A DNA stretch of 64,000 nt from a phage. The notes under the pieces were generated by a model, which was given only the letters and a program-made list of their open reading frames with translations, did not search any database and was not told where the DNA came from. The first letter of the stretch is position 1. The number at the start of each line of letters is the position of its first letter. Both the position numbers and the translations under genes were made by a program. Of the stretch, positions 36,951 through 39,625 are shown in pieces. The stretch lies in sequence record PQ724393.1. One strand, given 5' to 3'.

Positions 36951-37528
36951 TTGTATACTGTTTCCGTCAGTGTAGTAAGTTCGTCTATTTTATACCAATG
37001 GGTTTCAAGCATTTCACGTTGGCGAATTTCATGAAGGAAGTTTTCTTCCAATTGAACCGTAGAGTTAACCCGATGGCATTTCTCGATACGAGAAACAACT
37101 ACTTCATCAGCATAAGGCAATGCTGCATATAACAGGGCAGGACCACCGATTACGCTTACCTTAGAATCCCTGCCAAGGATAGGTTCGAAGAACGCATTAG
37201 GACTTGATACTTGGATTTCACCGCCTGAAATAAAGGTTATGTATTCAGCCCATGTGATATAGAAATGAGCAAAATCGCCATCTTTGGTTTCAGGATAATC
37301 ACGCGCAAGGTCACACACTACCACATGACTACGGCCTGGGAGTAATCCAGGTAATGATTGGAATGTTTTAGCACCCATAATCATGATTGTACCTTCAGTA
37401 CGAGCTTTAAAATTCTGGAGGTCCTTTTTAACTCGTCCCCACGGAAGTCCGTCACCTAAACCGAATGCATTTTGGTCAGTACCATCAACAGTTTTAGTTG
37501 GAGAATAAGCGAACACTAATTTAATCAT
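36947..37528 (-). CDS. frd: dihydrofolate reductase
   Basis: 193 aa (T4 Frd 193); position; overlaps td start. Confidence 0.85.
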
Positions 37529-37767
37529 TTTAATTCCTCAATATAAGCGATGTCAGAGGGCTCAATATAATTGCTCGAGCGTTGGCCATGATAATTGTAA
37601 ATGCAAAAATAAAATCGGTTTTTAAATTTATTTTGCACTAAAGAAACGGTGTAGTAATCACCATTTGAGGTTTGAACTACAAACAAATTATCATAATAAG
37701 TTGGATTTAGGTAGATATCAGCGATATCTATATCTTCTCCGACCTTAAGCAGATTTAATGTTTTCAT
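37525..37767 (-). CDS. hypothetical protein
   Basis: start moved to internal ATG ([10 protein letters not shown]); 80 aa. Confidence 0.35.
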
Positions 37768-38101
37768 AATTAGACCGTAGCTTTTTAATGGCAGTAAAAT
37801 CTTTGCGAATATCGAGAACCAATTTGTAAAGATGTTTAATTGTATCTGTATCAAAATATGATACCGCGCAACGTGATTGGCGAATATCTTCTAATGAATA
37901 TTTGCTTTCGCAAGACCCGTATCCAATGATACCACTAATGCACTTGTCATTAAGCGTATATTTCTGTGGGCCATCAATATTATTTTTAGGATAGATATAA
38001 AGGCTCCAATCAAATTTTTGTTCAAGCGTATTAACCTTAACTTCAAGAATCAGTTCAGGATGGGCATCATCTTTAGCAAAGCAAGTGTATTCAGTAAGCA
38101 T
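37745..38101 (-). CDS. hypothetical Cys-containing protein
   Basis: 118-aa ORF. Confidence 0.4.
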   Translation of the reverse strand: MLTEYTCFAKDDAHPELILEVKVNTLEQKFDWSLYIYPKNNIDGPQKYTLNDKCISGIIGYGSCESKYSLEDIRQSRCAVSYFDTDTIKHLYKLVLDIRKDFTAIKKLRSNYENIKSA

Positions 38102-38346
38102 TATAGCACCTCAACATGTGTGATATCGTTTGGCCAAATGATGTCATGATGGTTATAATAGGAAATATCGCCCTTAACAAAACGATAATTATTACCACGG
38201 CCTTGCTCCCAGGCCAAAGATACCTTATGGAGGTTTTCATAACGGTCCCTGACCCAAAAGGATTCGTCATATGCTGTATTATTATAAAGTCTATCCAATT
38301 CTGCTTCGGTACCAGTAAACTCTTTTAAATTGATAGTAATTTGCAT
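38101..38346 (-). CDS. hypothetical protein
   Basis: start at ATG with GAGGAAAA RBS (MQITINLKEF); 81 aa; the 160-aa table ORF is a read-through composite. Confidence 0.4.
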   Translation of the reverse strand: MQITINLKEFTGTEAELDRLYNNTAYDESFWVRDRYENLHKVSLAWEQGRGNNYRFVKGDISYYNHHDIIWPNDITHVEVL

Positions 38347-38356
38347 TATATTTTCC

Positions 38357-38617
38357 TCACGCTTTCTTAGCGATTTTCCAGTCAGCTTTAAATTGGTCGA
38401 CATCAGAGTGGTGAATCCAGAAACCAGACGAGCTACCATCTTCATAAAGAGGACAACCATCACACTCATCTTTCCAACCCATCGCGCATAAAGCTTGTTC
38501 AGCTTTTTCCAGAGCTTCCGGGTTATTACCTTGGATTGTGAAGTACCATTTGCCTTTAACTTCAGAATCGTTGATTGATTCACGTTGTAATTTCATTTTA
38601 TTCTCCTTAGTTGACAA
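38357..38617 (-). CDS. hypothetical protein
   Basis: 86 aa; AAGGAGAA RBS; own promoter. Confidence 0.45.
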   Translation of the reverse strand: MSTKENKMKLQRESINDSEVKGKWYFTIQGNNPEALEKAEQALCAMGWKDECDGCPLYEDGSSSGFWIHHSDVDQFKADWKIAKKA

Positions 38618-38621
38618 GGCT

Positions 38622-38651
38622 ATAGTATCACTACCATAGCCTGATGTAAAC
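38622..38651 (-). promoter_or_regulatory. early promoter cassette
   Basis: GTTTAC-N18-TACTAT on - strand. Confidence 0.5.
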
Positions 38652-38897
38652 TTATTTTTGAATTAAGCCCATATAAAATTTAGTGTCTTCCGGGTGCATA
38701 CCGTCGCAATACTCGTCAGCCATAAAGCGGGTAAGGTCTTCAAGAGGACCTTGGACTTCAATTTGCATACTACAGAATTGAGTATCTTTAATATGGGTCA
38801 CAACTAAAGAAGGATAACGATTACGGATAACTTCGTAAGTGTATTCAAAATCAACGATATCAATATTAACCTTAGCCATTTTATTTTCCTCACTCAT
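38652..38897 (-). CDS. hypothetical protein
   Basis: 81 aa; GAGGAAAA RBS; own promoter. Confidence 0.45.
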
Positions 38898-38911
38898 TAG
38901 TTGATAGGTCT

Positions 38912-38940
38912 ATAGTATCATGTTTAAAGGCGTTGTAAAC
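38912..38940 (-). promoter_or_regulatory. early promoter cassette
   Basis: GTTTAC-N17-TACTAT with TGn extension; near-identical to the 39597 and 56893 cassettes. Confidence 0.5.
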
Positions 38941-38942
38941 AT

Positions 38943-39215
38943 TTATTTTTGAATTTTATCAAGCCATTTACCAAGTTTAATCATTTCTTTGGTAGCTTTT
39001 TCCATACTTCTGAATTTAACCAGTAAAGGTTGTGAATCAACACCCATAACTAAGGTGGTTACAAGACTATGTTCACCTACAAGCCATAATGAATAAGTTT
39101 GGATATCGAGCCCGTAATTTCGGTCTTTATGAACTCGTACGCCCATAACTTCAAACTGTTCGCTGGCTTTTTCTACGGCATCCAGGAAATCATCTTTAGT
39201 CATGTTAAATTCCAA
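38943..39215 (-). CDS. hypothetical protein
   Basis: 90-aa ORF. Confidence 0.4.
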   Translation of the reverse strand: MEFNMTKDDFLDAVEKASEQFEVMGVRVHKDRNYGLDIQTYSLWLVGEHSLVTTLVMGVDSQPLLVKFRSMEKATKEMIKLGKWLDKIQK

Positions 39216-39567
39216 AGGTAGCTTTAATCAAGGCAACAACTTCTGCCGCATTTTTATGATTGACTTGTACATGAATGGTTTGGGTATCTATTACAGGGGT
39301 ATCATCTACTTCTATGAAGTGTTTGAATTCCCATTCAGCGAGTTCAAAATATTCATCAGCATTATCTAGGCTATCTAAGATAGTACCGTCTTTCATTTCA
39401 ACTTTTTCAACAAAATAATCACCGTCGATATAACACATATCCAGGACTTTAAAGGAACCACCGTGTTGTTCCATCAGTTTGACCATACGTGAGTTATCGT
39501 CAGGACTACCCTCAATGAATTTTCTTTTAGAAGAAGGGTCTAATGCGTAAGTTTTACCAGTTTCCAT
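39205..39567 (-). CDS. hypothetical acidic protein
   Basis: 120 aa, net charge about -12; GAGGAAAT RBS; own promoter. Confidence 0.45.
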   Translation of the reverse strand: METGKTYALDPSSKRKFIEGSPDDNSRMVKLMEQHGGSFKVLDMCYIDGDYFVEKVEMKDGTILDSLDNADEYFELAEWEFKHFIEVDDTPVIDTQTIHVQVNHKNAAEVVALIKATFGI

Positions 39568-39596
39568 TTTTATTTCCTCATGTAGTTGATAAGTCT

Positions 39597-39625
39597 ATAG
39601 TATCATGTTTAAAGGCATTGTAAAC
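39597..39625 (-). promoter_or_regulatory. early promoter cassette
   Basis: GTTTAC-N17-TACTAT. Confidence 0.5.

Follow-up and report, generated by a model that had tools for sequence, protein, structure and literature searches.

Introduction

In bacteriophage T4 three small genes, frd.3, frd.2 and frd.1, lie between gene 32, which encodes the single-stranded DNA-binding protein, and frd, which encodes dihydrofolate reductase. Here we describe the corresponding interval in a 64,000-nucleotide stretch of phage DNA (sequence record PQ724393.1; hereafter the window), where seven small open reading frames (ORFs), designated A to G, occupy this position. We conclude that the cluster is very probably an ordinary, early-transcribed example of the frd-32 hyperplastic region: three units, each led by a promoter and encoding small binding proteins that are not enzymes, brought together through modular recombination.

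A closely related system is that of the PeSLs, regulatory cassettes present in repeated copies through which modules are shuffled in hyperplastic regions; in their T4/PST form they carry a promoter with the consensus TTTACW-N17-TAYWAT (Arbiol et al. 2010, PMC2839356; Comeau et al. 2014, PMC4122927). For the proteins encoded in such regions a point of reference is T4 Frd.2, which is predicted to possess an N-terminal LSm/SH3-like barrel, as are GoF and MotB.1, and an acidic tail, and whose amber mutant plates normally (Kim et al. 2025, PMC12152347). The D25Y form of GoF stabilises an mRNA; wild-type GoF and MotB.1 had no effect in a reporter assay, and AlphaFold3 gave no confident oligomers (PMC12152347). 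No member of the GoF/MotB.1/Frd.2 group has a demonstrated wild-type function. When T4 genes were knocked down by CRISPRi-ART, frd.2 was the only gene of unknown function to be scored as "Fit", with frd.1 and frd.3 scored as "Not fit". The supplementary table gives frd.2 a score of 0.83 (p=0.027) with its individual guides not fit, and the published identification of frd.2 as a fitness gene is marginal, and weaker than it sounds. RNAs from frd.2 and frd.3 have been detected in T4, frd.3 mRNA being among the abundant NAD-capped T4 RNAs.

The characterised early anti-defence and host-takeover genes of T4 include Dmd, Arn, IPI*, Acb1/57B, Acb2/Vs.4, TifA, Alc, Ndd and MotB. Like these, the genes of the frd-32 cluster are small, early-expressed, non-essential and located in a variable region, and the possibility that they serve similar ends is taken up below.

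Seven genes between gene 32 and frd

Between 33.7 and 41.6 kb of the window every gene is encoded on the minus strand, in the T4 order nrdA, td, frd, the frd-32 interval, gene 32, 59 and 33. The interval measures 2153 bp, which is mid-range among the 27 loci compared in this work (1360-3043 bp), and ORF calls confirm that it holds seven minus-strand ORFs. Its features, in the order in which they would be transcribed, are as follows (the promoter assignments are predictions):

39678-40583, minus strand: gene 32 (ssDNA-binding protein), upstream edge of the cluster
39642-39661, minus strand: gene 32 intrinsic terminator, 8-bp stem with 5 GC pairs, GGGAAGACTTCGGTCTTCCC followed by a T run
39597-39624, minus strand: early promoter P1, TTTACA-N16-TACTAT, TG-extended, driving A and B
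39205-39567, minus strand: ORF A, 120 amino acids, Frd.2 family (frd.2a type)
38943-39203, minus strand: ORF B, 86 amino acids, phrog_4423
38912-38939, minus strand: early promoter P2, TTTACA-N16-TACTAT, TG-extended, driving C
38652-38879, minus strand: ORF C, 75 amino acids, Frd.3 homologue
38622-38650, minus strand: early promoter P3, TTTACA-N17-TACTAT, TG-extended, driving D, E, F and G and reading into frd
38357-38596, minus strand: ORF D, 79 amino acids, Frd.1 homologue
38101-38346, minus strand: ORF E, 81 amino acids, phrog_4308
37745-38101, minus strand: ORF F, 118 amino acids, phrog_8592
37525-37767, minus strand: ORF G, 80 amino acids, phrog_4308
36947-37528, minus strand: frd (dihydrofolate reductase), downstream edge of the cluster

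Three of these genes have counterparts in T4. A first-pass annotation of the window had seen no recognisable domain in any of the seven products, which a profile search shows to be wrong for three of them; nor are the promoter-fronted ORFs novel additions. ORF A matches Pfam FRD2 (PF03197; 113 bits, E=1.1e-32, profile positions 1-95 of 96, gathering cut-off 29 bits) and, in the PHROG search, phrog_622; ORF C matches Phage_FRD3 (PF05798; 130.8 bits, 2.6e-38, positions 1-75 of 75, cut-off 28.1 bits); and ORF D matches DUF5417, the T4 Frd.1 family (PF17438; 121.7 bits, 1.5e-35, full length, cut-off 23.9 bits). The three promoter-fronted ORFs are therefore homologues of T4 frd.2, frd.3 and frd.1. 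At the protein level A is identical (100%) to its counterpart in phage fDHCT2, 77% identical to JS10 frd.2a and 32% identical to T4 Frd.2, whilst C and D are respectively 68% identical to T4 Frd.3 and 72% identical to T4 Frd.1. The remaining ORFs fall, by full-length profile matches, into PHROG families annotated as "unknown function": phrog_4423 for B (E=1.4e-49), phrog_4308 for both E (3.2e-33) and G (1.2e-23), and phrog_8592 for F (1.8e-72). ORF C also aligns with the phrog_1764 profile, but only with positions 317-390 of 391, so that in some members of that family Frd.3 may form the C-terminal domain of a far longer protein.

The translation starts listed above were reassigned to ATG codons that lie behind a Shine-Dalgarno sequence and are in line with homologues. 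The ORFs previously called at 38357-38617 and 38652-38897 are real but were begun too far upstream: the first starts with a TTG at or before the predicted transcription start, the second with an ATG that lacks a Shine-Dalgarno sequence and lies roughly 8 nt from the 5' end of the RNA. Neither 38617 nor 38897 would therefore be usable from these promoters, and the starts taken are 38596 (D) and 38879 (C), which agree with T4 Frd.1 and Frd.3 and have GGAG/GAGG in front. Internal ATG codons were likewise chosen for E (38346), G (37767) and B (39203). With these corrections the strong ribosome-binding sites ascribed to the promoter-fronted genes are indeed present at A, C and D, the longer start of C being the one that lacks such a site; E and F also have strong Shine-Dalgarno sequences, and those of B and G are weak or absent. 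Both B and G are placed for translational coupling. The B start lies 1 nt past the A stop (TAAcATG), the E stop and F start overlap (TAATG), F and G overlap by 23 nt, and the G stop overlaps the frd start (ATGA).

All seven ORFs are real protein-coding genes under purifying selection. In pairwise codon comparisons with homologues in the fetched loci, the ratio of non-synonymous to synonymous substitution rates (dN/dS) is about 0.03-0.27 across the seven, compared with 0.09-0.19 for frd and gene 32 in the same loci, with B and D the most constrained (0.03-0.10). Among individual genes, values of 0.08-0.23 were obtained for A, 0.11-0.29 for C, 0.03-0.10 for D among close relatives and 0.03-0.06 for B. 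The shortness of the ORFs, and the want of a good Shine-Dalgarno sequence in B and G, might suggest that some are chance reading frames in intergenic DNA. Against this, dN/dS is far below 1 for each ORF against several relatives, and each belongs to a PHROG or Pfam family and is kept in dozens to hundreds of phage genomes. Chance reading frames have next to no probability here, and on the evidence of sequence conservation we regard them as excluded.

Promoters and proposed transcription units

Early promoters were recognised by a -35 element GTTTAC(A/T), a spacer of 16-18 nt and a -10 element TAYWAT, on the coding strand and upstream of an early gene. In a consensus scan P1, P2 and P3 all have the form of T4-type early (sigma70) promoters, and host sigma70 RNA polymerase would be expected to initiate at each of them early in infection. 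A 32-nt cassette pattern has four matches in the window where 0.22 would be expected by chance. About 14 early promoters of the same class are found on the minus strand of the window, many of them with the leader AGACCTATCAACTAATGAGGA in common, and by sequence the cluster promoters are ordinary members of this genome-wide T4 early-promoter class.

The whole P1 cassette extends over approximately 39568-39630 and includes the leader AGACTTATCAACTACATGAGGAAATAAAA. Just upstream, at 39661-39642 and directly after gene 32, lies the intrinsic terminator that the cluster had been said to abut; it doubles as the upstream stem-loop of the cassette, and T4 has an equivalent element. P1 and P2 have in common a 48-nt stretch at 92% identity, the two copies lying 685 nt apart, and their identity of 0.82 is the highest among the 14 early promoters. 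The first-pass annotation had described all three cassettes as near-identical, which is apt for this pair. It was rejected for P3, whose identity to P1 and P2 (0.52-0.57) brings it no closer to them than the average pair of early promoters (0.50). P3 is the orthologue of the T4 frd.1 promoter, to which it is 80% identical.

The unrelated proteins B and C share the last 12 nt of their genes, ATTCAAAAATAA, encoding IQK and the stop codon (38943-38954 and 38652-38663). This sequence directly precedes the -35 element of P2 (after B) and of P3 (after C), implying that the repeated cassette reaches into the 3' end of the upstream gene. In T4 (our locus L002, approximately 5015-5083) frd.1 is separated from its promoter by a 22-codon hydrophobic ORF, MFAPYIMAAVMLVCLYLLIKAC, which has its own Shine-Dalgarno sequence but no annotation in the RefSeq record; the window has no such ORF, and frd.1 follows P3 directly.

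ORF B has no promoter of its own and rides behind A, as E, F and G do behind D, and there is no terminator between P1 and frd. Three immediate-early units can thus be proposed: P1 would serve A (frd.2-type) with B as passenger, P2 would serve C (frd.3), and P3 would serve D (frd.1) with E, F and G as passengers. From there transcription would continue into frd, td and nrdA.

Variable layouts and probable modular exchange

The order of genes between gene 32 and frd was compared across the 27 loci, in nearly all of which a promoter precedes frd.1. Representative layouts, in our nomenclature, are:

T4: gene 32, then frd.3 frd.2 frd.1, then frd
RB14: T4 layout plus G
L004: 2b B frd.3 frd.1
fDHCT2: A B C D E
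JS10, JS98 and MN04: A 2b B C D E F (named frd.2a, frd.2b, ORF, frd.3, frd.1, ORF and ORF)
04086: 2b B C A D F G
L011: 2x C A B D F plus one more ORF
S16: nine annotated ORFs
L008: about ten ORFs

The nearest genomes over the region are JS10 and JS98 (92-93% over 89%), MN04 (92% over 90%) and fDHCT2 (98% over 75%). At the nucleotide level, then, the closest matches are to the Dhakaviruses JS10 and JS98, and the source phage is by this comparison a Dhakavirus of the JS98/JS10 type, not the Tequatrovirus that had been assumed. In common with JS10, JS98, MN04 and T4, the window has the same flanking genes, strand and gene 32 terminator, with promoters in front of the first gene, frd.3 and frd.1; A to F are 77-100% identical in protein sequence to their JS10 counterparts. 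Unlike JS10, JS98 and MN04, the window lacks frd.2b and has gained G, a gene otherwise found in RB14-type Tequatroviruses and in phage 04086. The last 11 residues of ORF F are likewise unlike the JS10 form and the same as those of 04086. In contrast to T4, the order of frd.2 and frd.3 is swapped.

These layouts bear out the idea of an accessory, variable and early-transcribed cluster with more genes than in T4, whose seven members are neither all core T4 genes of known function nor absent or apparently untranscribed. The description of the cluster as enlarged is true relative to the three genes of T4; JS10, JS98, MN04 and 04086 also have seven, however, and other genera have up to about ten. 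The exact seven-gene combination of the window occurs in no record of the phage collection that we searched, where maximum coverage is 90%. As judged from these comparisons, the cluster is a new permutation of a known hyperplastic region, with every gene in a family already seen in related phages.

How might such permutations arise? Homology between the window and its relatives breaks at 39581, 39205, 38948, 38660/38606, 38343, 38105, 37781 and 37541, in every case at a gene boundary. The breakpoints at 39581, 38948, 38660 and 38606 fall within promoter cassettes; the remainder are plain junctions sharing only ribosome-binding sequences (our repeat families D3 and D4, comprising Shine-Dalgarno sequence and ATG). 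The A(-B) module, here flanked by P1 and P2, follows frd.3 in L003, L011 and 04086. At the other end of the cluster, the ORF adjoining frd always ends in EELK or KELK, whether it is G (in the window), E (in fDHCT2) or F (in JS10). This is because the frd Shine-Dalgarno region, GAGGAATTAAAATGA (37528-37545 in the window, and just upstream of frd in L001, L027 and L028 also), is embedded in the last codons of the neighbouring ORF. Homology resumes at 37541, and by its sequence the GAGGAATTAAAATGA microhomology is the mark of a recombination joint.

Several of these properties recall PeSLs. The early promoters of the window match the T4/PST consensus and are followed by a Shine-Dalgarno sequence and an ATG, and the cassettes are repeated within a hyperplastic region and lie at boundaries of insertion, deletion or transposition between relatives. 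P1 and P2 form direct repeats around a 685-bp module, the geometry that gives rise to PeSL mini-circles in RB49 and phi1 and that is seen here in the sequence alone. Unlike PeSLs, only P1 has an upstream terminator stem-loop, the P3 hairpin overlaps the spacer and -10 element, and half of the breakpoints are at plain gene junctions.

We suggest that T4-type homologous recombination on short repeats would move whole genes together with working expression signals, the substrates being repeats of two kinds, promoter/leader cassettes (PeSL-type) and translation-initiation sequences. With joints located in repeated promoter or ribosome-binding sequences, each insert would arrive already expressible. 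The products would be small binding proteins, not enzymes, appearing within the first minutes after infection. Most likely they would modulate macromolecules of the host or of the phage, and standard laboratory hosts would not require them for phage growth.

A number of points weigh against this interpretation. About half of the breakpoints (39205, 38343, 38105 and 37781) have no promoter cassette, so PeSL-type exchange cannot be the sole mechanism and would explain part of the junctions, not all. P2 has no stem-loop (z +0.7), and that of P3 overlaps the promoter rather than preceding it. Transcription starts, read-through and timing are deduced from sequence and from T4, and binding is a predicted property of the cluster proteins. 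Even so, we consider the combination of promoter-led units and modular recombination to be very probably correct. On this basis T4 would represent a minimal version of the frd-32 hyperplastic region, to which Dhakaviruses and other T-even genera have added small early genes that are interchangeable. The biology illustrated by the region is mainly known already, and current understanding is unchanged unless a function is found for one or more of its products.

A possible anti-defence role and ORF B

It had been proposed that clusters such as this are home to host-takeover or anti-defence genes, with the acidic ORF A, transcribed first, singled out; its net charge of -12 is confirmed. The proposal can be restated more generally as an anti-defence or host-takeover island in which some small early protein (in our view B would be the better candidate) blocks an immune system or signal. 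Several observations are consistent with this: early expression from strong promoters, the difference in gene content between close relatives, and the uniform acidity of the Frd.2 family (net charge -5 to -19). Hyperplastic regions have also been proposed to hold adaptive functions (PMC4122927).

ORF B is the best candidate of this kind. Homologues are present in 350 records of the phage collection and occur in unrelated groups, namely T-evens, Phapecoctavirus, Klebsiella siphophages of about 50 kb and a T1-like contig, in each of which they sit within a cluster of small early ORFs. The family has an invariant core of 20 residues (KDRNYGLDxQTYSLWLVGEHS) and a predicted alpha-beta3-alpha fold. 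It is small, an exhaustive profile search yielding 12 clusters at 50% identity, all of 64-98 amino acids, with neither fusions nor bacterial context. A role for B as a new anti-defence protein, perhaps a sponge or other small inhibitor directed at a conserved enterobacterial immune component, is a long shot, but as a highly constrained ORFan found across phage families B provides a lead for tests against defence systems.

Other evidence points away from an island of this type. No homology was detected between any cluster ORF and the characterised T4 genes listed above, or any solved or characterised anti-defence protein. Sequence and profile searches of six families against the solved structures of the PDB, which include known anti-defence proteins, gave only noise, and a scan for NCBIfam names for the seven ORFs returned nothing. 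Selection is strongly purifying and gives no hint of an arms race. Knock-down of T4 frd.1 or frd.3 carries no fitness cost and, as noted above, the frd.2 mutant plates normally, although this evidence is weak, most defence systems being missing from the hosts used in the laboratory. Among open-access papers, none connects frd.1, frd.2 or frd.3 with defence. Taken together, we think it unlikely that the cluster is an anti-defence island, reasonable as the idea is as a prior for regions of this kind.

ORFs E, F and G and the predicted small barrels

ORFs E and G are paralogues that have diverged to 29% identity (E=3e-5 by BLASTP). In the phage collection E is found in 87 records, including jumbo phages, and G in 64, mostly RB14-type Tequatroviruses; F is found in 80, nearly all of them T-even phages of Escherichia or Shigella. 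An initial search for E homologues gave five hits and a family-alignment search was therefore used to obtain a fuller set. A model of E built from a 55-sequence alignment (pLDDT 89.3, pTM 0.76) consists of a helix followed by a small bent beta-barrel, for which the nearest solved folds, all weak matches, are Pelota-N, Hfq and LSm. A Foldseek comparison with viral models recovered E's own family only, and not Frd.2, GoF or MotB.1. We therefore describe E as a small barrel of the Sm/SH3 type and leave it outside the Frd.2 family. E, and G by homology, are accordingly predicted to be small Sm/SH3-like beta-barrels, and phrog_4308 can be annotated in these terms.

Could A, E and G be Sm/LSm-like small beta-barrels that bind RNA and tune mRNA stability or translation early in infection? 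ORF A belongs to FRD2, the family of T4 Frd.2 with its predicted LSm-like N-terminus, and GoF(D25Y) can stabilise an mRNA (PMC12152347). The mark of the LSm-like family is a bent antiparallel beta-sheet of five strands at the N-terminus, a fold that A would share by its homology to Frd.2. On a related reading the paralogous E and G barrels could form a phage Sm-like RNA-handling set with A. As in the GoF/MotB.1/Frd.2 family, E and G are predicted to be built on a small bent barrel, a weak similarity of fold. Unlike its members, they are single-domain proteins of about 80 amino acids with no C-terminal domain, and neither sequence profiles nor Foldseek link them to Frd.2: profile-profile comparison of A with E/G was null (probability 0.2%), and the same method found no hidden relationship among the six module families save that of E with G, already known. 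The strong acidity of A is unfavourable to RNA binding, and the failure of the wild-type GoF and MotB.1 proteins in the reporter assay, and of AlphaFold3 to give confident oligomers, also speaks against the idea. An RNA-handling role seems to us decidedly unlikely.

ORF D and a possible link to nucleotide synthesis

All Frd.1 homologues examined share an invariant C-(D/N/L)-x-C-P motif, together with GKW, GF and FK columns in the alignment. Located beside genes for nucleotide reductase, folate and thymidylate functions, this CxxCP motif suggests a redox or metal site. It is one of three observations that might indicate that the cluster products serve the nucleotide-synthesis machinery (Frd, Td and NrdAB) as accessory subunits or as regulators, which would account for their co-transcription and coupling with frd. 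The second is that the position of the cluster between gene 32 and frd is conserved across genera, and the third that the ORF adjoining frd, which is G here and E or F elsewhere, overlaps the frd start and contains the frd ribosome-binding site. The E homologue of jumbo phage RaK2, however, adjoins denV and not frd, which rules out an obligatory linkage of E/G to frd. The homologues of B in T1-like phages and Phapecoctavirus lie among small hypothetical ORFs and have no frd within the few kb of flank examined, the genes found adjacent to frd vary greatly, and B, E, F and G are all missing from T4. The case for a nucleotide-synthesis role is one of synteny, weakened by RaK2, and we judge it very unlikely. 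A set of interchangeable binding proteins, brought together by modular exchange, is our preferred reading of the whole cluster.

Flanking genes

The td gene (36090-36950) is uninterrupted, with neither the group I intron nor I-TevI, and in contrast to T4 there is no segG in the gap between genes 32 and 59 (40584-40672). The homing elements that T4 has here are missing from the source phage. Rfam and tRNA scans gave no hits.

A conserved hairpin at the frd.1 promoter

The P3 promoter contains an inverted repeat:

38617-38642, minus strand: P3 hairpin, 11 bp, AGGCTATGGTA-GTGA-TACTATAGCCT, minimum free energy -18.4, z -4.2 versus shuffles

The 5' arm lies in the spacer and the 3' arm comprises the -10 hexamer plus 5 nt. 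Similar hairpins with different sequences are found at the frd.1 promoter of T4, RB14, S16 and other T-even lineages (z -2.3 to -7.3). In eight sequences that share the same register, four of the 11 pairs show compensatory change, including position 3 of the -10 hexamer, which changes with its partner in the spacer, and 96.6% of cells are paired compared with 23-48% when the pairing is slid. Since the hairpin is upstream of the predicted transcription start, it could form only when the DNA is single-stranded or in RNA that reads through from an upstream promoter. It is perhaps the equivalent of the stem-loop in T4/PST-type PeSLs and, being conserved by compensatory change across genera, provides a further lead.

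Such hairpins are present at six of the 14 early promoters in the window. The others, at minus-strand early promoters at approximately 60105, 59362, 30927, 29636 and 23734 (z -2.8 to -5.6), comprise spacer plus downstream sequence, and in the two at approximately 60105 and 30927 the 3' arm is the Shine-Dalgarno sequence of the downstream gene. Read-through transcripts would thus hide the ribosome-binding site, whilst the promoter's own transcripts would expose it, an arrangement that we take to resemble the known one at the T4 lysozyme gene (e).

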